A DNA stretch of 42,891 nucleotides from contig PLBD01000467.1 in assembly GCA_003135315.1 (NCBI GenBank), forward strand, positions 8,120-51,010. The letters are read 5' to 3'. How positions within the stretch are numbered: position 1 is the first letter of the stretch; every line of letters starts with the position of its first letter. The position numbers were made by a program, and so were the translations under genes. Under the pieces are notes generated by a model. The model had not been told where the DNA came from, searched no databases, and saw only the letters and a program-made list of their open reading frames with translations. This DNA comes from Acidobacteriaceae bacterium. GTDB lineage: Bacteria > Acidobacteriota > Terriglobia > Terriglobales > Acidobacteriaceae. This document shows positions 1-26,503 of this stretch, in pieces.

Positions 1-1
1 T

Positions 2-1564
2 GTACCCATGATTCGGTAGCCCGCCGTTGTTCATTGTGGTCATGAACCCGGTCGGCAATTCACTCCGCGGCCAAAAATCGGAGAGATCTTTGTCCTTGCG
101 CGCGTCCCATTCATGCAAGGCAGCATCGAACGCCGCAGTTTCTGCCGGCTTGAAGAACCTTCCGCCGTATGGTTTCCTTTCTTGGGCACACGACGGGCAG
201 TATCCTTGTATCGCGTAGGCAGCCACGGGGCCCGTCTTTCCCAAGTGCCTCACGGCCTCGAGGACGTCCTGCACTCGTCCACACGTGGAGCCCTGGCATG
301 TGAAATGAGACTTCTTAGGAACCGTTCCTTTATTTGTCTCGAACGAAACTCCGGTCTCAGGACACGTGACCCGCTCAGGAAGTTTGCCTCGAACCTCTAT
401 GAGACGCGTCGTTTTCGCGCGCTCGGCATTCCACGCGACCGTTGCCTCCGGTAAATCGGTCGCGCTGCCTCCGAACAGTGCTCCGTTCCTAGATTTGGCA
501 GGCGAGCCCAAGAGAAACGACGGGTGCAAGAGCAGCGTGAGATCAACCTTCTTGTTCTTGCGTTTCTTGAGGTCGAGGGGCATTAGTTGTCGGTGTTGGC
601 AGTGCGGACAACGAACGCCGCTTCTCTTGTCGAGTACGGCGAAGGCCCTTTCGCTATCCGCGATCACCAAGGGAATACCCGGGGCCATACGAGCTTCCGC
701 ATCCTCCACGTCGAAGTGCTTGCGACACTTCTCGCAGCGCTGTTTCTCCCATGCTTTTACCGAGAGCGTCTTCACAGCCACGACGGGCGTCGACATGATT
801 GGAGTTCTGTGCCCGCAGCCTGTTACCTGACAAGGCCCGTGCTTGGCCCAGAAGACGTAGATGATCTCCGGGCCCTCGTAGCGATAAGACTGACGCTCCA
901 CTAGCGAGACTGAAAGCGGATCGAAGCCCGAGCCCATCTTTTTGCCTGTTGGAACGTGCGTCCATGAACCCTTGTGTCCCCGCGGACAATCACAGGCATA
1001 ATACGGGGCGATCGCCGGCCTCACTTCGCCGTCGACTTCGGCAAGCAACGCCTTGACCTCGTCCGGTGTCACCTTGGAGAACTCGTTCTTCACGACGAGC
1101 CAAGCGATTGGGTTTAGATCTGTTCCCCACATCTTCATTCCGAGCCGAGAGCCTTCAACGAGCGTCGTGCCGCCTCCCATGAAGATGTCGGCCACCCTCA
1201 GGTGTGCGAATGCCGCTTTCTTCTGATGATTGGCGTAAAAGAGATCCCAGACAGTCTTAGCGGCCTGCGCGGGATCAGCGGGAGCCTTGGCGCTTGCACC
1301 TATGAGGATTGAACGGAAGACGGTCGAGCGTCTGCGCGCCCACCATTTAGACATTTGATAGATCGGTTTGCCGGCGTTGCCTTCGATCGTCGCGACTTGG
1401 TTCACAGGGAGGATCGGGAAGTCCACCTCGAGGCATGTTCTCGGACGCGCGGGGTCAGCGAAGTCGACGGTTTCTACGGCAGTAGTCTTCCCCGCGCCGA
1501 CGGCGCGTGCGATATCGTCCTCGATCCCGGTCTTCCGGCGGTTCCCCGAATTCGCCTTAGCCAT
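2..1564 (-). CDS. DNA methyltransferase of the DUF1156 / COG1743 type (Zn-ribbon containing, PglXI-like); C-terminus lies beyond the left window edge
   Basis: Not in the ORF track because no stop falls inside the window. My reverse-strand translation from ATG 1564 stays open to position 2 (MAKANSGNRRKTGIEDD...). It has the DUF1156 hallmark IYQMSKWWARRRSTVF and a SAM motif-I region VADIFMGGGTTLVEGSRLGMKMWGTDLNPIAW. Several Cys pairs are present (CDCPRGH..CQVTGCGH; CEKCRKH..CPHCQH; CPETG..CQGSTCG; CPSCAQE). The ATG lies 8 nt after the stop of the upstream PglZ gene. Confidence 0.85.
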   Translation of the reverse strand, partial: MAKANSGNRRKTGIEDDIARAVGAGKTTAVETVDFADPARPRTCLEVDFPILPVNQVATIEGNAGKPIYQMSKWWARRRSTVFRSILIGASAKAPADPAQAAKTVWDLFYANHQKKAAFAHLRVADIFMGGGTTLVEGSRLGMKMWGTDLNPIAWLVVKNEFSKVTPDEVKALLAEVDGEVRPAIAPYYACDCPRGHKGSWTHVPTGKKMGSGFDPLSVSLVERQSYRYEGPEIIYVFWAKHGPCQVTGCGHRTPIMSTPVVAVKTLSVKAWEKQRCEKCRKHFDVEDAEARMAPGIPLVIADSERAFAVLDKRSGVRCPHCQHRQLMPLDLKKRKNKKVDLTLLLHPSFLLGSPAKSRNGALFGGSATDLPEATVAWNAERAKTTRLIEVRGKLPERVTCPETGVSFETNKGTVPKKSHFTCQGSTCGRVQDVLEAVRHLGKTGPVAAYAIQGYCPSCAQERKPYGGRFFKPAETAAFDAALHEWDARKDKDLSDFWPRSELPTGFMTTMNNGGLPNHGY

Positions 1565-1572
1565 TTCTGATC

Positions 1573-2568
1573 TCACTCCGTCCGCGAAAGCTCGATGAAG
1601 GGCGAGGCGACCTCGAGAACGGTAAGTCCGCCATGCGTCAGTGTTGGATAGCCGCCCTGGCTCTTCCACTTCCGCCGTCCGAGGGCAAACTGTGTGATGC
1701 CGTGCTTCGTCATCAGCTCGAGCTGCACGGGTGGGACCCACGGAGACTCGTCTCTCTCCCCATAAGCAAACCGCCCCGACTTGAACACTTCCTTTAGAAA
1801 CCTGGCTTGATCATCCGGCGCGTCCGCAAAGAGTCCAGTTGCCGCGTAGCCATGGTCCGATGTGATGACGAGACGCCGTCCCGTACACATTCGGTCCACG
1901 AGCGACCAGAAGTCGTCGCTGGTCAGTTCTTTCGCGACTTCGACTGTGAGCCTCTCTAGACCCTGTCCCGCCGCCGCCAAATCGTGCACGCGGTTGTCCG
2001 GCCAGTGATGCCAGAGCACCCAATCCGGTTTGGTGTCGATCACCTTGGCTGCGTCGGCCCAAGGGATGCCGAGCGTCTCCGTTCGGGCCTTCTTCAGCCT
2101 GTGCGAGGATCCCGCACCATTGTTCTCGAGTGCCGCGCGGCCGGCGAATCCAAGTGCTCGTGCAAACGAAGACGTTTCACCCGGAAGCTCCGATGCAGTT
2201 GCGTACGAGGCGTGGAGCTTGTAGCCGCGTTTCTCTGCCTCCTTTAGAAGCCACGGAACCTCTCGCAGTGAGAGCCCATCGAGGATTAGGACCGCGCGGC
2301 CGGAGTTTCTTCCAGCCCACCACGAGGCCAACGTCTCTGCCGTCGTTGGGGCACTGGCATTGAATTCCTTCCACAGATCCCAGCCAGCGGCTGCCAGAAA
2401 CAAGTCGAGTGCAGCTGTCTCTCGATCGCGCGTTGTAACTTCACCTGGCGCCGCCTTCGGTGTCACCGGTGGGCTGCATATTTCCCAAGCGTGCTGGAAG
2501 ATCGCGCGCCATGCCTCTCTCGCCGTCGCGGTGGCTAGCGTCCGTGTTAGGGAAAGGGAGAGTCCCAT
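1573..2568 (-). CDS. pglZ: Minimal stand-alone PglZ-domain protein (alkaline phosphatase superfamily), 331 aa
   Basis: Track ORF. PglZ-type motifs occur in the expected order: AVLILDGLSLREVPWL, ELPGETSSFARAL, LVITSDHGYA, LTHGGLTVLEVASPF. ATG 2566-2568 directly abuts the TAG stop (2569-2571) of the upstream ATPase gene. Confidence 0.75.
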   Translation of the reverse strand: MGLSLSLTRTLATATAREAWRAIFQHAWEICSPPVTPKAAPGEVTTRDRETAALDLFLAAAGWDLWKEFNASAPTTAETLASWWAGRNSGRAVLILDGLSLREVPWLLKEAEKRGYKLHASYATASELPGETSSFARALGFAGRAALENNGAGSSHRLKKARTETLGIPWADAAKVIDTKPDWVLWHHWPDNRVHDLAAAGQGLERLTVEVAKELTSDDFWSLVDRMCTGRRLVITSDHGYAATGLFADAPDDQARFLKEVFKSGRFAYGERDESPWVPPVQLELMTKHGITQFALGRRKWKSQGGYPTLTHGGLTVLEVASPFIELSRTE

Positions 2569-5286
2569 CTACCCTTCGTCCTTCTTTAGGTTGAGCTCGT
2601 ATGTCAGCCCGTCCGGTAGCGCGCGCAGAACCTTCTGAAGCTGGGCGCCTGTTGATGCAGTGACCCTCAGGTTCACTTCGCGGACGGTGGTGCCCGGTCC
2701 GATACCCCACGCTTCGACTTTGCCAATGAGGTTCAGCGCTGAGGTCGCGGGGGCTGATAGCTCGACGACGTTGTTCGCTGCAACCGGTGGTCCTCCGAAG
2801 ATCGTTGCCCCCCCGATCGGATCAGCGGGAACCGGAACACCGCCGGGCTGAGTACCAGCCGACGGAGCCGGTGGTTGGAACAGCCCCACGCTCGAAGGAG
2901 CTTGACCTCCAGAGGTTGGCTGCGTCGCCAGGCCGTGCGCCTGCGGAACGGCCTGCGGAAGGAGAAGGTACGTCTCATCGAGATGCTTCCCGGTGCCGAG
3001 TCGGCCTCGCATCCGTATCCAGACAGATTCTTCGTCCTCACCCGGAGATGCCTGCAGGTATTCCATCCCACGAAGGTTGACGGCGATCTGCCCGCGGGCG
3101 CACATTCTAATGATCTTCTCCTTCATCGAGGTTTCGCCGAGCCATGGGATGCAATCCTCCTCATTCGGCCTCGGCTCTTGCAGCTCGCGAAGAACCTTCC
3201 CAACGGACTCATTGCTACCCGCCGCTGCGAGGACCAAAGCTTCGAAATCCTCTGGAACGAAGATATCGCTCTTGAGACACTCTTCAATGGCTTCGGGAAT
3301 CTTGCTGCCTTGCGCGGTCAGATTCTCGACGTGGAACTTGCAGCGCGTTGGGTCGGTGAAGCTCCATGTCCGAAGAACGGCGAACCGATCAAAGCGCTGT
3401 CTGATGATCGAACGCAGCTCCGTCTGGTACTTCGTCTGAAGCTTGCCGTACTCGGGATCCTGCGCGCGCCATTCCTGGGCTTTCAGAATAGCTCTCGCGA
3501 GCACGAGGAGATCCCGATCGTTGTACGCGTTGGTGCCGCCCGTGTGTGGCAGCAAGAAGCGGACGATGTTGCGTCGTCGTTGAAGTTGGTCCTTGAGCCA
3601 ACGACCGAGCTGTGCGTGCAGCTTGTCTGGCTCCTCGGGAAGAACCAGAATCGGGATCCGATCGTCCCATCGATCAGGCTGTTCCGAATCTTCGAGCCCC
3701 TTCCATGGTACCGTGGTCCACGCTGGCGGAAGCACGATAACGCGAAACGCCTTCGCTACGTCCTCGGTGCCTGAGAGAACGTATCGAATCTCGCGTCCAA
3801 GCTGAGCTCCGTCTGAACCATCCGTGAAAAGGCGATCGTTCCGCGCAAACGCCATGAGCTTTGCCTGCGGGTTCTCTTCCTCACGAAAGACGAGCCGCTC
3901 GCCGTCGGGATGGATGTTGAAGCTGTTGTCCGCAATCAGGGCGAGCTCGACCTGGAAGGCATTGTCGTCGATCGGTTTGCTTCGGGTGATGTCGACGTGA
4001 AGCATTTGCGGGCCGGCACCGGCATGATTGCCCACGGCCAGCGATCGGAGCCAGAGCGCCCCGACGATTTCGGAGAGGTGTGGAACCTCGGTGTCGGGCG
4101 ATTTGACGGCTTCGGCTACTGCTGTGAGGTTGCGCTGCGCCTTCTCTCGCAGAGTCGCATGGTGCTGGTTGGCAACCGAGTCCAGGAGCGCAGCGATCCC
4201 ACTCGACTCATCGTCAAGACGGAAGTCGGCCGCGGTGAGCACTGGCACCACTGCTCCACGACTCTTAAAGAGGTCTGCGAGGATCCGAATCAAATCGCGC
4301 GTCTCCTGTGCGTCCGTCGCGACCAGCACCTGGTCCTCCAGGAGTTGCATAAGGTGCGGCGCAAACGGCCACATCTCCAAGAAGTCGCGCCGCTTGCGAT
4401 CGTGGTCGGTGGGTGCGACGTCCATAAGGCGGAGGTACTCAGATACGTGCGCGGCTGTGAGCCCTTCGATGTCCGCCTGAGGGACCTGCGTGCGGTTCTC
4501 GAATAGGCGGTGGAGGAGGAGCCGGCGACGATCGCGCTCCGCGCTGGGGCCCTTGAAGTCGACTAGAACCGGGTTAACGCGATGGATCTGTTGATAGGCG
4601 TCCGTAGCGCCGTTCCGCACCGACACCACAAGAACAAGCAGCTCCGGATGCTCCTTCGCGATCTCCGACAAAATCTGAACGAAGTTGAAGGCCCAGTGCT
4701 TCCACGGGTACTGCTTCGTATTTGTTAGGCCGTCAAACCAAGTTTGGAATTCGTCTAGGAGGAGGGCAACGGGTTGCTTGTGAAGGAGCTCGAGTATGAG
4801 CGAGTCAGGCGGAATGTCAGTCTTCCGATCGCCAAGCCCCTCCCACTTTCCGCGAATGAACTGGCCGTGCGGATGCTGCTCAAAGAGTAGATCCCAGAGG
4901 AACTTGTAACGTTGGCGATGGAGGCTCTCGCTGATTACCATCATTCCGGTGCGGAGGGGCAGGCTGGCGATCTTTGGGACTTGAAGTCGATCCGCCCACG
5001 TCTCGAGCCACGATCTCGTGGCGTTCGCGTCCGTCAAAGTGTGATAGAGGGCGGCGAGCAAGTGCGACTTGCCTTGCCCTCGCTCACCGATCATCACCAG
5101 CGGTCGTCCCTGATCCGGCCCGACGGCTTCGATGGCCTTGAGCAAATCATGTGATGGGTAGGTAATCTCGAGGAACTCCGAGGCCGGAATCTGCGTTGCA
5201 CCGGTGTGCTTTTCGTTGGCCAATTCAATGGCCGTGCCCTTCAGGCGCTTGCCTTGGAATTCCTTGCGTAGCGTCAGGCCGAGCAT
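2569..5286 (-). CDS. DUF499 / COG1483 P-loop ATPase (BrxC/PglY-like), 905 aa
   Basis: Track ORF. Walker A is MIGERGQGKSHLLAALYH and Walker B is VALLLDEFQTW. A Pro/Gly-rich linker precedes a small C-terminal domain. The gene is tightly packed between the HTH gene (4-nt gap) and the PglZ gene (0-nt gap). Confidence 0.8.
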   Translation of the reverse strand: MLGLTLRKEFQGKRLKGTAIELANEKHTGATQIPASEFLEITYPSHDLLKAIEAVGPDQGRPLVMIGERGQGKSHLLAALYHTLTDANATRSWLETWADRLQVPKIASLPLRTGMMVISESLHRQRYKFLWDLLFEQHPHGQFIRGKWEGLGDRKTDIPPDSLILELLHKQPVALLLDEFQTWFDGLTNTKQYPWKHWAFNFVQILSEIAKEHPELLVLVVSVRNGATDAYQQIHRVNPVLVDFKGPSAERDRRRLLLHRLFENRTQVPQADIEGLTAAHVSEYLRLMDVAPTDHDRKRRDFLEMWPFAPHLMQLLEDQVLVATDAQETRDLIRILADLFKSRGAVVPVLTAADFRLDDESSGIAALLDSVANQHHATLREKAQRNLTAVAEAVKSPDTEVPHLSEIVGALWLRSLAVGNHAGAGPQMLHVDITRSKPIDDNAFQVELALIADNSFNIHPDGERLVFREEENPQAKLMAFARNDRLFTDGSDGAQLGREIRYVLSGTEDVAKAFRVIVLPPAWTTVPWKGLEDSEQPDRWDDRIPILVLPEEPDKLHAQLGRWLKDQLQRRRNIVRFLLPHTGGTNAYNDRDLLVLARAILKAQEWRAQDPEYGKLQTKYQTELRSIIRQRFDRFAVLRTWSFTDPTRCKFHVENLTAQGSKIPEAIEECLKSDIFVPEDFEALVLAAAGSNESVGKVLRELQEPRPNEEDCIPWLGETSMKEKIIRMCARGQIAVNLRGMEYLQASPGEDEESVWIRMRGRLGTGKHLDETYLLLPQAVPQAHGLATQPTSGGQAPSSVGLFQPPAPSAGTQPGGVPVPADPIGGATIFGGPPVAANNVVELSAPATSALNLIGKVEAWGIGPGTTVREVNLRVTASTGAQLQKVLRALPDGLTYELNLKKDEG

Positions 5287-5290
5287 GCGG

Positions 5291-5521
5291 CTATCTCCTC
5301 GTCAAGCTGGACCGTGACTTAGGGACGGCTGCCTGCGCTGGTTCCGCCTCTGCGACGGTCCGCTCCGTGATCCACATATCGAGCTCGGCGCGCCTGAATC
5401 GCCACGTGCCCCCGACTTTGAAGGCCGGCATTTGCCTCTCGGAGAGCAAGCGATAGATCGTTCGCTCCGTTACCTTCAGGTAGTCCGCGACCTCCCTTAG
5501 GGTGAAGATCTCCGTGCTCAT
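5291..5521 (-). CDS. Excisionase/MerR-type helix-turn-helix (HTH_17) DNA-binding protein, first gene of the defence operon
   Basis: MSTEIFTLREVADYLKVTERTIYRLLSERQMPAFKVGGTWRFRRAELDMWI is a classic HTH_17 pattern. I prefer ATG 5521, which has GAGGA 5 nt upstream; the track ORF starts at 5539. Confidence 0.75.
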   Translation of the reverse strand: MSTEIFTLREVADYLKVTERTIYRLLSERQMPAFKVGGTWRFRRAELDMWITERTVAEAEPAQAAVPKSRSSLTRR

Positions 5522-5538
5522 CGACGTCCTCATGCGCA

Positions 5539-5557
5539 TGTCGAGTGGTGCTCGACA
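5539..5557. promoter_or_regulatory. 7-bp-stem inverted repeat (TGTCGAG-TGGTG-CTCGACA) in the 5' leader of the HTH gene
   Basis: Read directly from the sequence. It sits 18 nt upstream of the preferred ATG 5521, next to the RBS. It could be an operator or an RBS-occluding hairpin. Confidence 0.35.
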
Positions 5558-5747
5558 GACTACGGTAAAACTTTCAGGACTTCTAGCTAGAATGGCTAAG
5601 GGATTCAGGATATTTCATCGAATGTGCCCGTCGATTCCTTGCGTCGCAAACGCAAGCCGATGGTGGTGGGCCCGCTGTTCAACTGATTGCCTAAGATTGA
5701 GGCACGACCGCATCAGCTCGAAAGGGCCCGGACGGCACGCGGTGCTT

Positions 5748-5834: not shown

Positions 5835-8800
5835 ATGCCCACACATCTCACAGCCCGGCTCGCTTGGCACACGGACGGCTGGAACGGATCCATTTGCCAT
5901 GCCCCGGAGAAGAATACCTACTGTGTCGGCTGCAAATCCTTTCCCGGCGATGTCATCGCTCGCGAACGCGACCTCAAGAAGGAACAGCTTCTCGCGGGCC
6001 GCTCGGGCGACAAGCTCGAGGGCTACGTTCCTCCATGCGGCTATAGTTACAACGCCTTCGGTCTCAACGAGGCTCCGGCCGCTTCGAACCCGCCGGACTT
6101 CTTTTTTGGCGGCGCGACGCGCCATGAGTGGCAGCTCCCGCCGGCTACCGTCAGTGTGTGGCCCTACGAGGCCATGTACGCGGAAGAAGTCAAGGCGGAG
6201 GGCTTCCTCGACAATGATCGCCGCCGCGCTTTGACGCTCGAGTTCTTTAAGCCCATCCAGGAAGACTGCGGCAAGAATCTCATTTTCTACTACGCCAACT
6301 ATTCGAACCCCCTCTCGGAAGACGAAGCGCCGCGTTACGTGCTCCTCGGCGTTTCCCGCATCATCAAGACGGGACCGGAGCTCTTCTACGAAAACGTGTC
6401 CCCCGAGGTCGCAAGAAAATATGCCGGCGGAATGATCTGGGCCCGCAACATCTCATCGGCTTACCCTGACGAAGGGGTTCGGCTCCCCTATCACCGCTAC
6501 GCTGGCGATCCCGACAGCCTGGCACGGATCGCTCTTTTTCCTGAAAATCCGCTGCTCTGCAAGTACGGCTCAAAGCACCTCACCGACGACGAAGCGATCG
6601 GGCTCCTCGAGCAGTTTCTCGCCAAGATTCGCCTGTTGCGCGACCTCGGCGACATGACGGAGGACTGGAGCGTTCGGGAGAGCTGGCTGCTCAAGGTCAT
6701 TGCGGGCCTCTGGACGCAGCGCGGCCTTTATCCCGGGCTTCTCAAGGCGCTCGATGTCGCGGGCGCCAGTCTCTTCGTCGACCGGGTCAAGGCTCTCTGT
6801 GCCGAAGTGGGTCACACCGCAGCGCATACGGCGGCCTTCGAGGTCCTCGAAGCAGGCCGCGACAACGCCCTTACAAAAGGTTTGGAACCTTCGGCCGCCA
6901 AGAAGATTGCCCGTAACTGGAGGCTGTTGGACGACGGTGCGCGGCTGCTCCTGCGTGATGTCCTACCGAGGCTTGATCTTCCTGCCGATGTGATGCAGGA
7001 AATCGTCTCGAAGGAGCGTGCCGATTGCGGGCTGACCGTATCGGCGGAGGAAATTGCGGGAAATCCCTATCTGATTGCCGAGCTCTATTGTGGGGTGGAC
7101 TCCAGTGATCGGATTTCCTGGAGCACTATCGACCGCGGCGTTTTGCCTTCCCCAGACCTCGGCGGCACACATCTGGCCGATGTGGAGTTTAATGACGCGC
7201 GGCGATTTCGCTCCCTGTGCGTTGAACATTTACGCACTGAACCAAAACACACCTTCCGGCTGGCGCGAGATCTCATTGTCGAGATCGCCGAGCGAATGTC
7301 CAGGCTTCCGGCATGGAAGCAGGCGGAGTTTACGGAGCGCTACTTTGATGTTGACGCGGATTTCCTGTCGGCAGCCCTAACCCTGCGTACCATTGAACCC
7401 AACTTGGCGATCTACCTGAAGTCTGTGTTCGAAGATGAACGAAACCTTGAGGGCACGCTTCGCGACCTGGCATCGCGGCCGGATATAACCTTACGTCGGC
7501 CGGTGACCGAGGCTGACTGGTTGTCGTGGGTATTCAAGTCTGACAGTCCGCTCGCCCTGAATGCGGGCGCGGAATATGCCGAGGCGACAAAGGAACAATC
7601 GGAGATCTGTTACCGCCTGTTCAACCGTCCGCTCAGCGTCGTAACGGGGCCAGCCGGAACAGGAAAGACAACCGTTATCGAGGCACTGATCCGCGCCGTG
7701 CGGCGCTCCGAAGGGGACGCCGCCGCCGTATTGGTGCTGGCTCCGACCGGAAAAGCAGCGGATCGCGCGCGTGAAGTTTTCGAAAAATCGTCGCTTCAGC
7801 GCGTGGAGACCGTAACGGTGCATTCGTTCCTCGCCTCGAATGGATGGTTGAACGAGAATCTTACGTTCAAGCGTGGGGGCGGAACGCGCGCCGAAGTGGG
7901 CACGCTCGTCCTCGACGAAGCTTCGATGTTGGACCTCGAGCTTGCGGCGGCCCTCTTCCGTTCAGTTGACTCGCAGCATATTCGGCGGCTGATCTTGGTC
8001 GGTGACCCCGGCCAGCTTCCGCCGATTGGACGAGGCCGCGTCTTTGCCGACGTGATCAAATGGCTGTCAACAGACCATCCCGAGAGCCTTGGCCGCCTCC
8101 GGCGCAATCTCCGTCAATTGCTGAACAAGGTACGAGGCGAAGGCACGGCTATCGTCTCAATGTCTGAACTGTTCCTTTTCGATGACGACGACAAGGGCGT
8201 TGGCGGCACCGACGCCGCCACTCGGGCCGACCAGGAAGACCTCATCGCGCGTATTCACGCTGGAGGCACGGTGGACCGCGACCTCGACGTCATTTACTGG
8301 AACGAGCCAGAAGAGCTCGCCCGCACGCTCATTGAAGCCGCCGAAGCCCGAATGAGCAAGGGGAAGCCCGTCGACGGAAAGCAGCCCTATCAGATTTGGC
8401 GCGAAGCCCTTGACGGCGATCCGATGGCATTCCAGATTCTGACGCCTCACCGCGGTGAGTTGCACGGCGTTGAAGCGATCAACGAGGCCTGCCAGGATCG
8501 CATCGCAGGATTCGTGCTTGGAAGGATCGGCGCCGTCGACGGAATAACGCTCTTCGACAAAGTCATTCAAGTGCGTAATCGGCCCAAATCGAATCCGATA
8601 TGGGCCTACGATTGGAAGCGCCGCGAGAACATTAGAGTCGAAACCTTCAATGGCGAGATCGGTATAGTTGGGACCTTTCCATTCGATAAGAAGATCTGGA
8701 CCACTTTGAAGACGGGATACGGACCACGTCTCAAGCGCTTCACGGTCCAGTTTACCCGCAAGCCGAACATCACCGTGGGTTACGGGCGCGGCGTGCCCGC

Positions 8801-9467
8801 AGGGAAATACTCGAAGAATGAGAAGGTCGAAGAGAATCTTGAACTGGCGTATGCCGTATCGGTGCATAAGGCGCAGGGCAGCGAGTTCGCCAACACCTTC
8901 GTGATCATTCCATCGAGTTCAAAGCGACCCGTGTCAGCCGAGTTGGTCTACACGGCGCTGACGCGGGCAAGCCAACACTGCACCCTCCTGATACAGCGAG
9001 ATGTGACCAGTTTGCTCGACGCACGGCGGCGTGAGAATGCGCAGACACCCCAAATCAATTCGTATCTGTTCTCACTGCATGTTGCAAAGGACGCACTGAC
9101 GAATCGGCGAAGCTGGTACGAGTCCGGGAAGATCCACGAAGCGCTCAGCGGCGACATGCTCAGGTCCAAGTCCGAAGTCATCATCGCTAATCTATTGCAC
9201 GACCGAGCGATTCCTTTCCGGTACGAGCAGCCCCTTTTCGCGAAGGACGGAACGCTGCGTCTACCGGATTTCACCGTTACCTGGCGCGGAAACACCTATT
9301 TCTGGGAGCATCTCGGGCTTCTCGACCAGACTGCGTATGCGGAGGAATGGGAACGGAAGCGAGCATGGTACGGCCGCTGGTTCCCTGATCAACTCCTAAT
9401 TACAAAGGAAGGTGCTCAGCTCAGCAAATCGGCCGAGGAGATCATCGCGAGGATCACCGCCGTGTAA
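5835..9467 (+). CDS. 1210-aa fusion protein: unknown Cys-rich N-terminal half + RecD-like SF1 helicase + C-terminal PD-(D/E)xK-like nuclease module
   Basis: ATG 5835 has GAAGGAG 7 nt upstream. Helicase motifs: Walker A VTGPAGTGKTT (GPAGTGKTT at 7647-7673), LVLDEASML, LILVGDPGQLPPIGRGRVF, YAVSVHKAQGSEF, VYTALTRASQHCTLL. The C-terminus LRLPDFTVTWRGNTYFWEHLG resembles a restriction-endonuclease-fold core. I do not recognise the N-terminal ~600 aa (LAWHTDGWNGSICHAPEKNTYCVGCKSF...). Confidence 0.85.
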   Translation: MPTHLTARLAWHTDGWNGSICHAPEKNTYCVGCKSFPGDVIARERDLKKEQLLAGRSGDKLEGYVPPCGYSYNAFGLNEAPAASNPPDFFFGGATRHEWQLPPATVSVWPYEAMYAEEVKAEGFLDNDRRRALTLEFFKPIQEDCGKNLIFYYANYSNPLSEDEAPRYVLLGVSRIIKTGPELFYENVSPEVARKYAGGMIWARNISSAYPDEGVRLPYHRYAGDPDSLARIALFPENPLLCKYGSKHLTDDEAIGLLEQFLAKIRLLRDLGDMTEDWSVRESWLLKVIAGLWTQRGLYPGLLKALDVAGASLFVDRVKALCAEVGHTAAHTAAFEVLEAGRDNALTKGLEPSAAKKIARNWRLLDDGARLLLRDVLPRLDLPADVMQEIVSKERADCGLTVSAEEIAGNPYLIAELYCGVDSSDRISWSTIDRGVLPSPDLGGTHLADVEFNDARRFRSLCVEHLRTEPKHTFRLARDLIVEIAERMSRLPAWKQAEFTERYFDVDADFLSAALTLRTIEPNLAIYLKSVFEDERNLEGTLRDLASRPDITLRRPVTEADWLSWVFKSDSPLALNAGAEYAEATKEQSEICYRLFNRPLSVVTGPAGTGKTTVIEALIRAVRRSEGDAAAVLVLAPTGKAADRAREVFEKSSLQRVETVTVHSFLASNGWLNENLTFKRGGGTRAEVGTLVLDEASMLDLELAAALFRSVDSQHIRRLILVGDPGQLPPIGRGRVFADVIKWLSTDHPESLGRLRRNLRQLLNKVRGEGTAIVSMSELFLFDDDDKGVGGTDAATRADQEDLIARIHAGGTVDRDLDVIYWNEPEELARTLIEAAEARMSKGKPVDGKQPYQIWREALDGDPMAFQILTPHRGELHGVEAINEACQDRIAGFVLGRIGAVDGITLFDKVIQVRNRPKSNPIWAYDWKRRENIRVETFNGEIGIVGTFPFDKKIWTTLKTGYGPRLKRFTVQFTRKPNITVGYGRGVPAGKYSKNEKVEENLELAYAVSVHKAQGSEFANTFVIIPSSSKRPVSAELVYTALTRASQHCTLLIQRDVTSLLDARRRENAQTPQINSYLFSLHVAKDALTNRRSWYESGKIHEALSGDMLRSKSEVIIANLLHDRAIPFRYEQPLFAKDGTLRLPDFTVTWRGNTYFWEHLGLLDQTAYAEEWERKRAWYGRWFPDQLLITKEGAQLSKSAEEIIARITAV

Positions 9468-9508: not shown

Positions 9509-9889
9509 TTAGCCTGTGGCCCGATCTTGCCACGCAAATATGTCGGCGGCGCGCCACCGAACAGCTCTAGGTCCAACACGAGTCTGCGCAGGGAATCGCC
9601 TTTCGCTTATCAGGCGATAGATCATTGACCTCGATAGGCCGACCAGGCTCTCGACATCCGAAAGGCGTAGGAGACGGCGTGAGATTAGTGGGTCATCGAA
9701 GTCGCGATCAGCTGAAATCCTTTGTGAACTGGCAGACTGCACAGGGTTTACGCGACGGCTAGCGAGGCGGATGATTTCATCTCTGAGCCGGGAGATCTCG
9801 TCTACAGCCCATTGCCGCTCCTGCAGTAGCTCCCCGAGGGTGCGGTGACCGGGATCGGCCCTCATTGCGTCGAACATATCTCGTGGCAT
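9509..9889 (-). CDS. AlpA-family (phage/island) HTH transcriptional regulator with an N-terminal coiled-coil-like extension
   Basis: The C-terminal LLRLSDVESLVGLSRSMIYRLISERRFPAQTRVGPRAVRWRAADIFAWQ is the AlpA/Phage_AlpA pattern. The start is uncertain: ATG 9889, GTG 9742, or the track start 10027. Confidence 0.7.
   Translation of the reverse strand: MPRDMFDAMRADPGHRTLGELLQERQWAVDEISRLRDEIIRLASRRVNPVQSASSQRISADRDFDDPLISRRLLRLSDVESLVGLSRSMIYRLISERRFPAQTRVGPRAVRWRAADIFAWQDRATG
9523..9780. repeat. Direct repeat R1, copy A (~258 bp, carries most of the AlpA-like gene)
   Basis: Hand alignment to 17534-17791 gives equal length and about 20 substitutions, with no indels seen. Confidence 0.85.
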
Positions 9890-10084
9890 TGGGTAGGCTC
9901 TCCAAACTGTCTGGACCTCTGTATGAGGTGTTGGCAGCCGATGTTGCGACGCCAACCCTGTAGTAACTCTAGTGTGCCGGTTTTTGTGCGGAAACTGGCG
10001 CCGGCGCCGGCCGCGACCGGCCGGCACAGTCCATGATATTCAATAGCTTATCATTATTGCGCTGCACTAAAAAGAGACAAATTA

Positions 10085-10209: not shown

Positions 10210-11865
10210 TCAGTCTGCTGGAGTCGGTTCATAGATTCTCGAATTGCCGAATGCTGCGAGAAGCCAAGGGGTAAGCTCATTCATCTTGCCGACTGTCCGT
10301 TCCGCGGGCGTCAGCCCTGGACGAAAGCCGCGTGCCCGCAAAGATTCGAGAATTTCTGGCTGACGACTAATCACATACACTGGGACGTCCCACGATGCGC
10401 CGTCGCCGCTGACGTTGGCGGCTGGCTGGTGATCCCCAAGAATGATCAGCACAAAATTGTCGCCCGCACGCTCCCGCAGATAGTTCGCGATCACATCCAA
10501 AAAATATTCCACTGAACTCAGGTAACTTTTGTCCATGTGAGTCCAATCTGGTTTCTGCGCGAGCGCACGCTGCAAGGGTTCGGCGTCGTAGGGCTGGGCG
10601 GTGAGTATGCGGTGCCCGTCTGGCTGCAGCGGCGGGGTGGGCACAAAGGGCATGTGCGTAGAGACGGTGGGAAAGAACACGAACAACGGTTTGCGGGGCT
10701 GGCGCTGCAATTCCTCAGCATCGAGTACTGCCAGCGAAAACTGATCGGGTATGCGCCACCATCCGAATTCGGGACCACGATAGTCGAGGCTTTTGGCGTC
10801 GTAGATCTCGTCAAACCCGTAGAATGCGCCTTCGGGCCAGCTCTGGCGCATACCTGGCATCACATCGATGGTGCGATAGCCGTGAGCTTTGAAGACCGAT
10901 ACCAGGGTTGGTCGCTGCTGGGTCATCAGCAGCGCATAGCGGCTGGAATCGCGGACCTCGATGCCTGAGAGCAAGCTCACGTGCGCGAGTACCGAGCCGC
11001 CGCCGAACGTGGGCGAGCTGACATAGCCCGACACGACGCTGCGGTGGGTATCTTGCACGGCCGCGGCCAGCCTTGCTCGTACCGGCATCAGGGCCTGCAC
11101 AAACTCCGGTCGATCGTATGTGACTCTGCCGTAGGATTCCATAAAGACAAGCAGCACGTCCTGGCCGGGCAGCGCAGCGAAGCTCGAGTGCAGGGGCGGC
11201 GAGGGCGGCAGGAGTTGGGTTGCACGGTTCGAAAGCGCATCAATAATCCGCACGAGCTGCTCGCTGTAGGTCTTGCTAACCGGGATCGAGAAGCGCGGTA
11301 GAGGCGGGAACCCGCCGGTGCTTTGCTGAACAAGGAAGCAACCAACGAGCACGATCCCCACAAGTCCGACACCCATTCGCGCAGCGTGATGGAAACGCAG
11401 CATGGCATCGATCTGCCCGAGCGACCAACGGGAGGCGACATACAACCCAGCGAGCACCACGAGGGCGCCAACACAGATCGTAGCCACCGACCAGAGGGAA
11501 GCCACGCGGAACAGCATGCCGGCGACGGAGGCAAGCTGGGGTACATCCCAATAGAGATTCACTTCGCGCCCGTAGAGCGCCGGCGCCGTCACGGCGCCAT
11601 AGCGGCCCAATGCAAAGATGACGATGAGCCCCGACAGTACGGCGAGCAAGCGACCCGGTGTCGGTCCGAGCCAGGCATTTGAGAGTGCGAGAAGTAGCAG
11701 TAGCGCCGCCAGCTCGATCGATAGCTCGCCTCGCCAGTGGACCGCGAGTGTCGGCCATACATTGTGAAACGTGACCAAGCCGTTGAGCAGTACCACCGCG
11801 ACACACACCGATGCCCAGCGGTGCCAACCACGCCGCCTTCGGATGCTGGTATCTGTGGCTAGCAT
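10210..11865 (-). CDS. Membrane-anchored sulfatase-fold transferase/hydrolase (LTA-synthase / phosphoglycerol- or phosphoethanolamine-transferase-like)
   Basis: The N-terminus has about 5 hydrophobic helices. The periplasmic alkaline-phosphatase-fold domain follows (VLLVFMESYG, GGGSVLAHVSLLSG, FFPTVSTHMPF, VLIILGDHQP). I prefer ATG 11865, which overlaps the upstream gene's TAG stop; the track uses TTG 11907. Confidence 0.7.
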   Translation of the reverse strand: MLATDTSIRRRRGWHRWASVCVAVVLLNGLVTFHNVWPTLAVHWRGELSIELAALLLLLALSNAWLGPTPGRLLAVLSGLIVIFALGRYGAVTAPALYGREVNLYWDVPQLASVAGMLFRVASLWSVATICVGALVVLAGLYVASRWSLGQIDAMLRFHHAARMGVGLVGIVLVGCFLVQQSTGGFPPLPRFSIPVSKTYSEQLVRIIDALSNRATQLLPPSPPLHSSFAALPGQDVLLVFMESYGRVTYDRPEFVQALMPVRARLAAAVQDTHRSVVSGYVSSPTFGGGSVLAHVSLLSGIEVRDSSRYALLMTQQRPTLVSVFKAHGYRTIDVMPGMRQSWPEGAFYGFDEIYDAKSLDYRGPEFGWWRIPDQFSLAVLDAEELQRQPRKPLFVFFPTVSTHMPFVPTPPLQPDGHRILTAQPYDAEPLQRALAQKPDWTHMDKSYLSSVEYFLDVIANYLRERAGDNFVLIILGDHQPAANVSGDGASWDVPVYVISRQPEILESLRARGFRPGLTPAERTVGKMNELTPWLLAAFGNSRIYEPTPAD

Positions 11866-12623
11866 TTCGAGGTCCGGGTACTGGGTAGCGAATTGCGGTA
11901 AAGCCAAAGGACCTGCTGTAGGAAGGAAAGCGTGAGCGCAGCCGACGCTGCCGCAGCAACCCTAGCGCTCAGTGCCGGGGAGACAAACGGCGCGATGGCT
12001 ACGATCAGGGCGACCATTTGCACGACGGCGATGGTCTTGCGCAAGTAGCTCGGAGGAAGCGGACGTCGCAACAAAGGCACGACCGCACCGGCCGCAAGGT
12101 AAAGATAGCGCAACAGTCCTGCCCAGAGCACCCAGGCCCCGACTTTACCGAATTGCCACGCCAGTGCTGCAAGCACGGCGACCAACACTGCATCGGTCTC
12201 CATGTCGAACCGGGCGCCAAAGCCGCTGACCATTTTGCTCCGACGCGCGAGCCATCCATCGGCGCCATCGAGGAGGCAGACAACGGACGCAGCCACCATG
12301 ACCATGGCTGGAACGCCGCTGACCGTTGATTCTCCGATCAGGGCGAAGAGCAACGCAACCAGAGTTCCGCGGACGAGAGTCACCTGGTTGGCGGGGCCAA
12401 GGCACGCAAAGGGATGCTGCTGCGGCAGCACCCAGAGCATCATCCCTGCACCGACACCGAAAACGAGTACGCTTTTGGCGACATACCACCCGCTCAGCTG
12501 CAGCCGGTCGGCCACGAACCAGGCAATCGCCACCATCGCCAGCCCAACCGGTAAGATGCCGGTCAACGCGCTGTGCAGGAGACTCCGGTGCTCGGGCCTG
12601 GCAATCGTTGTAGTGAGAGCCAA
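11859..12623 (-). CDS. CDP-alcohol phosphatidyltransferase family protein
   Basis: The signature DGADGWLARRSKMVSGFGARFDMETDAV matches DGx2ARx8Gx3Dx3D, and the protein is multi-pass hydrophobic. The track ORF extends to 12947 but would overlap the divergent dehydrogenase gene. The start is uncertain: TTG 12623 or ATG 12536. Confidence 0.75.
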   Translation of the reverse strand: MALTTTIARPEHRSLLHSALTGILPVGLAMVAIAWFVADRLQLSGWYVAKSVLVFGVGAGMMLWVLPQQHPFACLGPANQVTLVRGTLVALLFALIGESTVSGVPAMVMVAASVVCLLDGADGWLARRSKMVSGFGARFDMETDAVLVAVLAALAWQFGKVGAWVLWAGLLRYLYLAAGAVVPLLRRPLPPSYLRKTIAVVQMVALIVAIAPFVSPALSARVAAAASAALTLSFLQQVLWLYRNSLPSTRTSKC

Positions 12624-25126: not shown

Positions 25127-26503
25127 ATGAGCGCCAGATTACTTATCATCGCACTGGATGCCACCGATCTGCGCCTGCTCCAGCGCCACATCGGCGCGGG
25201 GCGGCTTCCGGTGATTGCCGCATTACGAACTTATGGACGCTTCAAGACGTTGTCGGCAAGCGCGTGCGCGACGGACGCCGCGCTGTGGGCATCTTTCCAC
25301 TACGGCACCGAAATCGGCGAACACGGGCGCTACCATGACTATCTGAGACTCCAGGACGGGCGGCACGGACTGGCGGTTCAAAACGAGCAGCAACGCGACG
25401 CAATCTGGGATGAGCTGTCGCATCGTGGCATGCGGGTCGCAGTCTTCGATTTGCCGAAGAGCCGGGCTCCCGCACCAATCAACGGTCTCCACCTCACTGA
25501 TTGGCTAGTTCATGGCCGCACGTTTTCCCGCCCGTTGAGTTACCCGGTCGAGTTGGCGGAAGAGGTGCTTAACCGATTCGGCGAAGCGCCGCACAGTCGT
25601 TGTGATCGAATCTGTGAGGAGCTGACCGATCCTCAAATCTCGCAGGTATGCGCTCATCTGCGGCAGTCGGTTTCCATGAAACGACTTGCCGCCCTGTCTT
25701 ATCTGGCACGTGAGCCATGGGACTGCTTCGCTGTCAGTTTCATGGAGATCCATTGCTGCAGTCACGGTTTCTGGAATCTGATTGACCCAGGTCACCCGGC
25801 CCACGATCCTGCGAGAAGCTCGCGCCTCGGCGATCCCTCAGTCGAGATTTTCCAGGACATTGATCGCGCGCTCGGCGATCTTGTCACTGCCGCGGGCCAG
25901 AATTCCGAAGTGATCGTATTTTCCACGTCGGATTTTCAGGCGAATGGAACAGTAAACCATCTGCTGCCTCAAATCGTCCTGCAGCTGAACAAATTTATTT
26001 GGAACCACGGCGCCGCATCGTTACTGCCCAGATCGAACTGGGGTGTGAAAATGTTGCCGTACAATGAGAACGCCTGCGCGCTGCGTTTATCCTGTATACC
26101 ACGTATATCACGCGCATACGAGGCACCACCAGACGGCAGCCGCGCAACAACGATTAAGGAGCTGGAGGACATCTTGCGAAAAATCTCCGATCCCGCCACA
26201 GGCGAGACAATATTTGAGGCGTTTCACCGACCGTCGAGTGACTATGCGGGAGTAAGATCCCACTGCCTTCCCGATATGTTGCTGGTTCCAAGGGCTGGCG
26301 TGTTTCCGCAAATGGTGGTATCCCCGGAACTTGGTTGTATCAGGGGTGAGGTGCCCAGCTGGAGGCTCGGCAACCATCGCGACGGTGGCTTCGTGATCGC
26401 GCGCGGCGCCGCAGTCGAAGCAATGATTGGTGGAGTCGATTCGCTCGCGCAACTAAGCCGGGGTGTAAGCAACGCGCTGTTGACCCGACCCCTATTGACA
26501 TAA
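25127..26503 (+). CDS. Alkaline-phosphatase-superfamily protein (nucleotide pyrophosphatase/phosphodiesterase-like), divergent
   Basis: The N-terminus LLIIALDATDLRLLQRHIGAGRLPVIAAL...SASACATDAALWASFHYGTEIGEHG follows the type-I phosphodiesterase layout. I could not confirm several catalytic positions. Confidence 0.45.
   Translation: MSARLLIIALDATDLRLLQRHIGAGRLPVIAALRTYGRFKTLSASACATDAALWASFHYGTEIGEHGRYHDYLRLQDGRHGLAVQNEQQRDAIWDELSHRGMRVAVFDLPKSRAPAPINGLHLTDWLVHGRTFSRPLSYPVELAEEVLNRFGEAPHSRCDRICEELTDPQISQVCAHLRQSVSMKRLAALSYLAREPWDCFAVSFMEIHCCSHGFWNLIDPGHPAHDPARSSRLGDPSVEIFQDIDRALGDLVTAAGQNSEVIVFSTSDFQANGTVNHLLPQIVLQLNKFIWNHGAASLLPRSNWGVKMLPYNENACALRLSCIPRISRAYEAPPDGSRATTIKELEDILRKISDPATGETIFEAFHRPSSDYAGVRSHCLPDMLLVPRAGVFPQMVVSPELGCIRGEVPSWRLGNHRDGGFVIARGAAVEAMIGGVDSLAQLSRGVSNALLTRPLLT

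Follow-up and report, generated by a model that had tools for sequence, protein, structure and literature searches.

The closest described relatives of the operon reported here are the helicase-methylase-ATPase (Hma) systems, which a computational study has renamed 'DUF499-centred BREX-Related (BR) systems', after bacteriophage exclusion (BREX), and divided into three types (Rakesh and Krishnan, NAR January 2026, PMC12839542). Type-3 BR, described from 569 taxa, 134 of them archaea, consists of a DUF499 ATPase, a PglXI-like methyltransferase, a helicase without a nuclease fusion, a near-universal stand-alone active PglZ and, in 82% of taxa, an inactive-STAND (iSTAND) protein (PMC12839542). The recognition insert of the methyltransferase is nested in the catalytic core and contains two 4-Cys zinc fingers in a subset, while the iSTAND protein, which has been equated with BrxB/BrxF, has Walker motifs that are eroded, an insert of three strands following strand 4 and no C-terminal helical bundle (PMC12839542). 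No other conserved nuclease was found in Type-3 BR neighbourhoods, and PglZ has been proposed to replace the nuclease lost from the helicase (PMC12839542). Here we analyse a 42,891-nucleotide (nt) stretch of DNA from an Acidobacteriaceae bacterium (assembly GCA_003135315.1, contig PLBD01000467.1, positions 8,120 to 51,010; hereafter the window), at the left end of which lies part of a six-gene operon. This operon is a Type-3 BR defence system and a typical member of the published class, assigned by gene content and iSTAND homology rather than by a DUF499 tree; the link to the published set, which includes KAA0250883.1 and EKO9556875.1, runs at the level of sequence through the printed iSTAND representative.

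The window carries four co-directional open reading frames (ORFs) on its minus strand, separated by gaps of 4, 0 and 8 nt. In order of transcription they encode an HTH_17 (helix-turn-helix, HTH)/excisionase-type DNA-binding protein (5291..5539, 82 amino acids (aa) from the first ATG; on identical contigs the start is called two or six codons later, giving 76-80 aa), a DUF499-type AAA+ ATPase (2569..5286, 905 aa), a stand-alone PglZ-type metalloenzyme of the alkaline-phosphatase superfamily (1573..2568, 331 aa), and the first 521 codons of an N6-adenine-type DNA methyltransferase (1..1564, ATG at 1564-1562), which is cut by the left window edge and whose last complete codon reaches base 2. Twenty-two public contigs encode a protein identical to the 331-aa one. 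One of them, the 142-kb ENA metagenome contig L001 (ERZ27248494 k141_808495), is identical to window bases 1-5600 and can therefore be used as a stand-in for the missing left flank. On L001 the methyltransferase is 1078 aa long and is followed 4 nt on by a gene for a 173-aa protein and then, with a 1-nt overlap, by a gene for a 938-aa SNF2/DEAD helicase, after which the strand of transcription switches. The complete operon encodes the HTH protein, the 905-aa ATPase, the 331-aa protein, the 1078-aa methyltransferase, the 173-aa protein and the 938-aa helicase, all on one strand and spaced by 0-8 nt or by a 1-nt overlap; the window holds its promoter-proximal two thirds, with the last two genes just outside.

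An earlier note, made from the letters of the window, had described the four tightly packed genes, quoted motifs from their products, and expected both that the operon would continue beyond the edge and that a helicase would belong to it. The gene layout and spacing proved accurate, every quoted motif (Walker A and B, ILDGLS, ETSS, TSDHG and THGG) is present at its expected position, and L001 supplies the continuation together with the helicase gene. The four genes are real and not chance ORFs, because the 331-aa protein has at least 2398 homologues and all 59 informative loci share the gene order. Neither the operon nor its 5' region gave anything above chance when scanned for repeats, promoters and terminators, and no operator or promoter stood out. 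The identical 331-aa protein occurs with identical neighbours on all 22 contigs (L001-L006 and 16 others), which come from several ENA and JGI metagenome samples that are unrelated to one another; because the identical locus recurs in unrelated samples, the source organism seems to be widespread.

The assignment of the 331-aa protein is central to the classification of the operon. It carries the motifs ILDGLS (95), ETSS (131), TSDHG (236) and THGG (311). Profile-profile comparison of a 65-sequence family profile with a 67-sequence BREX-1 PglZ profile gave a probability of 92.5% (E 4.7e-7) and aligned D97, T132, D238-H239, H312 and E319 with the PglZ motifs (IISDA, PSYT, ADHG and VHGG..E). Against single sequences the family profile scored 88% with E. 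coli HS PglZ, compared with 1.7% and 0.4% for two negative controls encoded in the same window and unrelated to the operon, an NPP-type phosphodiesterase (25127-26503, plus strand, PF01663, E 1.5e-12) and a sulfatase (10210-11907, minus strand, PF00884), which agrees with the earlier identification of the protein as PglZ-like rather than a generic phosphatase or sulfatase. The PADLOC PglZ model also matched (E 1.1e-5), over the C-terminal 100 residues only, and a search of the PDB with the family profile recovered alkaline-phosphatase-type chains of PorX only, the best match being the PglZ domain of PorX (E 0.015).

Residues D97, S100, T132, D238, H239, H312 and E319 are invariant in 25 relatives. 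In an AlphaFold model of the protein (m9f21d5825ab1; local distance difference test score as predicted (pLDDT) 82, predicted template-modelling score (pTM) 0.87) the secondary-structure elements are predicted to follow an order compatible with an alpha/beta/alpha core capped by beta structure, preceded by an N-terminal 85-residue helical bundle. Homologues fall into at least 2398 clusters (90% identity) at E<=1e-3, all of about 330 aa, or 467 clusters at 50% identity, each full-length one listed being 316-362 aa. From these sequence comparisons we conclude that the 331-aa protein, though a distant relative, is probably a true PglZ-type enzyme whose active site is intact, and it is presumed to be a nuclease or phosphodiesterase effector. 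The size of these relatives and the gene order of the 59 loci bear out the earlier description of a stand-alone PglZ of some 330 aa that is encoded between the ATPase and methylase genes.

Sequence identity between the 173-aa protein and the printed iSTAND representative of PMC12839542 is 42% (E 5e-45), and no match to the 173-aa protein was found in Pfam, PADLOC or NCBIfam. Its family has no conserved GK[ST], G54 being the sole invariant residue there. An AlphaFold model of a homologue 84% identical to it (P0121, model m95908f26e64b, pLDDT 91.6) shows a strand at 98-102 followed by strands at 110-113, 118-122 and 131-133, end strands at 147-150 and 164-169, and no C-terminal helical bundle. 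Foldseek comparison of this model with the PDB returned P-loop matches only, all of them insignificant. For the models of the 331-aa protein and of the 173-aa homologue alike, Foldseek gave only matches with E >0.3 and TM <0.35, although PorX and BREX PglZ/BrxB entries (for example 8TED and 9ZLL) are in the library.

The 938-aa helicase matches HmaA (E 1.8e-95) and BrxHI/HII (E 2.6e-90 and 3.2e-71), and only domains of SNF2-related, ResIII, DEAD and Helicase_C types were found in it; its motifs include GLGKT (K125) and DEAH. It aligns solely to positions 78-691 of the 1176-position HmaA profile, and the nuclease part is therefore missing from it. Library scans of its residues 705-938 gave no PLD or PD-(D/E)xK match.

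The ATPase has intact Walker A (GERGQGKS, 67-74) and Walker B (LLLDE, 175-179) motifs. It passes the Pfam DUF499 cut-off barely (26.5 bits against 23, residues 153-336), reaches only E 0.009 with PADLOC HmaC and is matched by no PADLOC BrxC model; a PDB sequence search found no solved relative. Homologues of 58-71% identity immediately precede the PglZ gene in all 80 genome loci, and by analogy the protein may be the BrxC-like motor or scaffold of the system. Its C-terminus (approximately residues 810-905, window 2569-2850) consists of a Pro/Gly/Ala-rich low-complexity linker and then some 70 residues that form a domain. The tblastn match to the ATPase ends about 380 nt short of the PglZ gene in four of the relatives, L025, L027, L046 and L076, and the C-terminal tail therefore appears to be variable; for BR ATPases, RRM/ferredoxin-like or FnIII-like C-terminal domains have been described (PMC12839542).

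The full-length methyltransferase matches PADLOC HmaB (E 1.3e-35), PglXI (E 1.7e-19) and Pfam N6_N4_Mtase (E 1.2e-7). Motif I (FMGGG, at 128) and motif IV (DPPF, at 689) are separated by a Cys-rich insert of about 500 residues with five Cys pairs (245/250, 277/280, 319/322, 423/428 and 456/459), so that the protein combines a DUF1156-like N-terminus with a large Cys-rich recognition insert. Its Pfam DUF1156 score (20.6 bits) lies below the cut-off of 24, and that for NCBIfam DUF1156_antiphage (83.7 bits) far under the cut-off. The domain labels of the earlier note proved correct, with weaker matches than it implied: HTH_17 is clear, DUF499 just passes, DUF1156 remains below threshold and Pfam PglZ gives no match.

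Conservation of the operon was assessed in 80 fetched loci by tblastn with the six operon proteins, and 59 of these loci had enough flanking DNA to be informative. In every one of the 59 the order ATPase-PglZ-methyltransferase-173aa-helicase is collinear and on one strand, across Pseudomonadota, Acidobacteriota, Planctomycetota, Cyanobacteriota, Verrucomicrobiota and Bacteroidota, and it is kept even in a divergent tier where PglZ identity is only 36-38%, which answers positively the question, posed by the earlier note, of whether this order is conserved elsewhere. Two loci (L088 and L089) considered as a variant order, with a small gene right after PglZ, turned out to have a split methyltransferase N-terminus and no new arrangement. 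Relatives of the 331-aa protein were found in 347 species genomes. The system is also present on 42 plasmids, of which 28 are from Klebsiella and the others from Enterobacter, Citrobacter, Raoultella, Burkholderia and Ensifer, with two haloarchaeal replicons; 34 of the 42 copies are on predicted conjugative plasmids (for example among records NZ_CP114377.1 and CP003092.1). RefSeq labels the plasmid PglZ-like and 173-aa genes 'hypothetical protein', and a megablast search of complete E. coli genomes with the Klebsiella version gave no match.

All five core components of Type-3 BR (PMC12839542) are present here in one operon: a DUF499 ATPase, an N6-methyltransferase with a nested insert, an SNF2 helicase without a nuclease, a stand-alone intact PglZ and a small inactive-STAND protein. 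The core shows no differences from the published description, and the locus departs from it in two peripheral respects. The HTH_17/MAD1-like gene that heads this operon and those of 35 of 72 relatives is unmentioned in that paper, and where the paper found auxiliary or backup nucleases absent or rarely kept, 17 of 76 relatives have extra genes at the PglZ/methyltransferase junction, those in the sampled cassettes being known or candidate defence systems such as IetAS and SIR2-HerA.

The HTH protein matches Pfam HTH_17 (E 2.9e-16), the 'excise' domain (E 7e-16) and PADLOC mad1 (E 5.4e-9), and scores 79.5 bits with NCBIfam MAD1 against a cut-off of 80. In the 35 of 72 related genome loci mentioned above, no more than 500 nt separate the ATPase gene from the end of a homologous HTH ORF upstream of it, showing that the gene is an accessory one that heads about half of the operons; its product is likely to be a transcriptional regulator of the operon. 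The presence of this MAD1-like gene at the operon head is a small addition to the published description.

Embedding, scored as more than 500 extra nt at a junction, is concentrated at the PglZ/methyltransferase junction, the main hot spot with 17 of 76 loci, compared with 4/65 at methyltransferase/173aa, 4/64 at 173aa/helicase and 1/80 at ATPase/PglZ. The single case at the last of these is a 6.1-kb insertion between the ATPase and PglZ genes (L019:3879-10000); in the other 79 of 80 loci the gap is at most 500 nt. Cassettes sampled in relatives are IetA-IetS (4 loci), SIR2-HerA (3 genome loci and the K. pneumoniae plasmid pKP0155-2, with its operon at NZ_CP114377.1, 2071-15530), HEC-01A/B, a Schlafen/AlbA_2 protein with a ParA-like ATPase, and a DUF1828 protein, all co-directional with the operon; the loci with embedded cassettes are L012, L017, L028, L032, L034, L040, L047, L053, L059, L060, L070, L083 and L092 (L092:6110-8987). 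Other defence systems are embedded in 62.7% of Hma systems (bioRxiv 10.1101/2024.01.29.577857), and the cassettes found at fixed junctions extend this known habit to Type-3 BR, a further small addition to the published description. The PglZ and iSTAND genes, which sit at two internal junctions of an ancestral ATPase-methyltransferase-helicase operon, may themselves have entered as embedded cargo. Judging from gene positions, we raise as a tentative and rather doubtful proposal that Type-3 BR arose by fixation of such PglZ/iSTAND cargo, which would have replaced the helicase-borne nuclease, and that a shared MAD1-type HTH switch would govern such modular operons. If this were true, 'guilt-by-embedding' hot spots would be a route to composite systems such as BREX.

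Comparison with the other known systems places the operon outside each of them. With Hma/Type-1 BR it shares the helicase-methyltransferase-DUF499-type ATPase backbone and the embedding of other defence systems between genes, including the 'Hma-embedded candidate' HEC-01. It differs in the absence of the C-terminal PD-(D/E)xK nuclease of the helicase, which is essential in Hma, in the presence of PglZ and iSTAND as two extra conserved genes, and in an ATPase that barely fits HmaC. Hma (PADLOC)/Type-1 BR was ruled out on these three grounds: the helicase without its nuclease part, the HmaC match of E 0.009 only, and two further universally conserved genes. Type 3 BREX (BrxF, BrxC, PglXI, BrxHII, PglZ and BrxA) has in common with the operon a PglXI-like methyltransferase, a BrxHI/HII-like helicase, a P-loop ATPase, a PglZ and a small inactive P-loop protein, BrxF, to which the 173-aa protein is comparable. 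Here, however, PglZ is a bare 331-aa domain and not a multi-domain protein (E. coli BREX-1 PglZ has 865 aa), and the ATPase is of the DUF499 lineage, separate from BrxC according to PMC12839542. Neither the operon proteins nor the three genes past the helicase gave a match to BrxA (DUF1819), and Type 3 BREX was ruled out, given the missing BrxA and the single-domain PglZ with its short helical N-terminus. Types 1, 4, 5 and 6 BREX were set aside on the BrxL criterion, as no Lon- or MCM-like BrxL lies within 7-10 kb on either side on L001.

Measured against the BREX definition of Goldfarb 2015 (PglZ, a BrxC/PglY ATPase and a modification gene), the operon clusters PglZ with a large P-loop ATPase and a methylase, the ATPase matching DUF499 and not PADLOC BrxC. 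The Type 1 BREX PglZ:BrxB sub-complex (Readshaw et al. 2025, PMC11974810) resembles it in the catalytic motifs of PglZ and in pairing this enzyme with a small Walker-less P-loop-like protein. In Type 1 BREX the N-terminal region of PglZ is seen with BrxB and BrxC (PDB 9zll, by its title), whereas here it is replaced by the 85-residue helical bundle, and the 173-aa protein has no detectable sequence similarity to E. coli BrxB. With MADS (mad1-8) the operon shares only the type of regulator, a leading HTH protein near the NCBIfam MAD1 equivalog; MADS was ruled out, the mandatory MAD6, MAD7 and MAD8 being unmatched and the HTH protein alone matching, and a weak mad2 match on the methyltransferase reflects the shared methylase fold. 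The earlier note had read the locus as a modification-type defence operon that joins a helicase/methylase/ATPase backbone with a BREX-type PglZ, and the HmaA and HmaB matches together with the PglZ homology support it in this. Its remark that BrxA, BrxB, BrxL and BrxF are missing from the visible part stands for BrxA and BrxL, neither of which was found; the iSTAND protein, equated with BrxB/BrxF, is encoded by the next gene after the methylase, outside the window.

We regard as probable, and as the best explanation of the locus as a whole, a Type-3 BR operon with a BREX/Hma-like mechanism in which PglZ would act as the nuclease effector. In such a system the methyltransferase would mark a short host motif by means of its zinc-finger recognition insert, and the ATPase, the helicase and the inactive-STAND protein would form a complex that locates and tracks unmethylated incoming DNA. 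The stand-alone PglZ would substitute for the missing helicase-fused nuclease as a metal-dependent nickase/nuclease on unmethylated DNA, with Thr132 as the putative nucleophile and Asp97, Asp238-His239 and His312 as candidate metal ligands, and the small HTH protein would tune transcription of the operon. A nuclease role for PglZ is the most economical model because the helicase, itself without a nuclease, is always accompanied by PglZ and a BrxB/BrxF-like protein. In Hma, the nuclease-fused helicase HmaA protects against phage T4 and its PD-(D/E)xK nickase is essential (PMC11232893); in BREX-1, mutants of the Thr and His residues of the PglZ active site lower defence, with methylation unaffected (PMC11974810). 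A role in defence is supported by the IetAS, SIR2-HerA and HEC-01 cassettes embedded in relatives and by PDC-S68 and AbiV-like HEPN genes near the operon.

Several observations weigh against this explanation. For Type-3 BR, methylation and its motif, phage protection and the nuclease activity of PglZ are all inferred by analogy. The Pfam PglZ model (PF08665) gave zero matches in the window protein and 25 relatives, and among 10 divergent relatives four sub-threshold ones only (17-21 bits, cut-off 25); NCBIfam names neither the 331-aa nor the 173-aa protein; and Foldseek comparison of the 331-aa model with the PDB gave no match with E below 0.6, so that the expected match to PorX or BREX PglZ was not reproduced. 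The PglZ homology is remote, and it took sensitive profile-profile comparison to bring it out. On the side of the 173-aa family, hhalign detected no similarity to E. coli HS BrxB, a PDB profile search matched no solved chain, and the proposed equivalence with BrxB/BrxF comes from the structural argument of PMC12839542. Loss of PglZ nuclease activity in BREX-1 reduces and does not abolish defence (PMC11974810), so PglZ need not be the sole effector.

The main rival keeps the system and changes the part played by PglZ. BREX exclusion has long been assumed to work without DNA cleavage, and PglZ could here be a PorX-like phosphodiesterase whose substrates are oligonucleotides, cyclic or linear, or else a subunit with a structural or regulatory part in methylation and assembly, with the ATPase and helicase blocking replication without cleavage. 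This reading is favoured by the PglZ domain of PorX, a response regulator, being the nearest solved relative in sequence, and by the properties of BREX-1 PglZ, which cleaves cyclic and linear oligonucleotides besides DNA, is inhibited by ATP and leaves BREX sites unrecognised, and whose catalytic mutants retain much defence (PMC11974810). We nevertheless consider this rival rather unlikely: the helicase here has lost the nuclease that is essential in Hma, no other conserved nuclease is nearby according to PMC12839542, and PglZ, with its invariant metal-binding and nucleophile residues, is the only conserved candidate for a catalytic effector. That the operon is not a defence system at all, and serves instead as a methylase-ATPase-helicase set for epigenetic regulation or maintenance of a mobile element, has very little probability in our estimate. 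Such a role would suit the 34 of 42 plasmid copies found on conjugative plasmids, and the defence role of the subtype is a putative one; the alternative is opposed by the homology to experimentally active Hma and BREX parts, by the defence systems embedded in and adjoining the operon, and by a patchy taxonomic distribution typical of defence islands.

Two further alternatives concern what kind of system the operon is. The 331-aa and 173-aa genes occupy the ATPase/methyltransferase and methyltransferase/helicase junctions, adjoining junctions accept unrelated defence cassettes in relatives, and embedding is common in Hma (62.7% of systems, bioRxiv 10.1101/2024.01.29.577857), all of which would be expected if the operon were a plain Hma/Type-1 BR system with these two genes as an embedded passenger. 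We hold this to be highly improbable, given that none of the 59 informative loci, widely divergent as they are, lacks either gene, and that both genes co-vary with the loss of the helicase nuclease, whereas true cargo cassettes are sporadic (1-22% per junction). The earlier note itself had suggested that the locus may be a hybrid or minimal BREX subtype outside the catalogued types. In favour of such a subtype, new to the literature, it can be said that the operon fits none of the six BREX types of 2015, that PADLOC-DB v2 would call no complete Hma (HmaC E 0.009), and that the 331-aa and 173-aa proteins are unnamed in NCBIfam and Pfam and hypothetical in RefSeq. Its chance of being correct is nonetheless slight. 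The architecture is that of Type-3 BR in 569 taxa (PMC12839542), and the 173-aa protein is clearly homologous to the printed iSTAND representative; the operon matches this named system gene for gene, which refutes the proposal of an uncatalogued subtype and leaves that reading outdated.

The surroundings of the operon contain further genes of interest. Divergent from it, at window 5835-9467 on the plus strand, lies a gene for a 1210-aa protein with a full-length PADLOC PDC-S68 match (E = 0, 1691 bits), a class listed by PADLOC as a candidate single-gene defence system; a RecD-like SF1 helicase core (AAA_30, UvrD_C_2) is located between N-terminal 580 and C-terminal 150 residues without assignment. 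Convergent with this gene is an AlpA/HTH_17 gene (9509-10027, minus strand; Phage_AlpA E 4.1e-15). AlpA/HTH_17 regulators are typical of integrative elements, and a tRNA search of the window found none to mark an island border. Past the helicase gene on L001 (17938-20491), three genes lie on the opposite strand; two of their products, of 250 and 305 aa, have no Pfam or PADLOC match, and the third gene encodes an AbiV-type HEPN protein (PF18728, E 1.9e-8). With PDC-S68 on one side and the AbiV-type HEPN gene on the other, the operon has genes with a likely role in defence on both of its sides.

The value of these observations belongs to the published class and not to this window in particular. 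Pfam, NCBIfam, PADLOC-DB v2 and RefSeq still leave the PglZ-like and iSTAND genes unnamed. In BREX, PglZ is hidden within a multi-domain protein of 865 aa, itself one part of a machine of six proteins. Type-3 BR presents the PglZ chemistry as a bare 331-aa enzyme beside a helicase without a nuclease, which makes the role of PglZ cleanly testable and the system a convenient minimal model. A ready-made version is available on plasmids of Klebsiella, Enterobacter and Citrobacter, where it may affect phage therapy and the spread of the plasmids.

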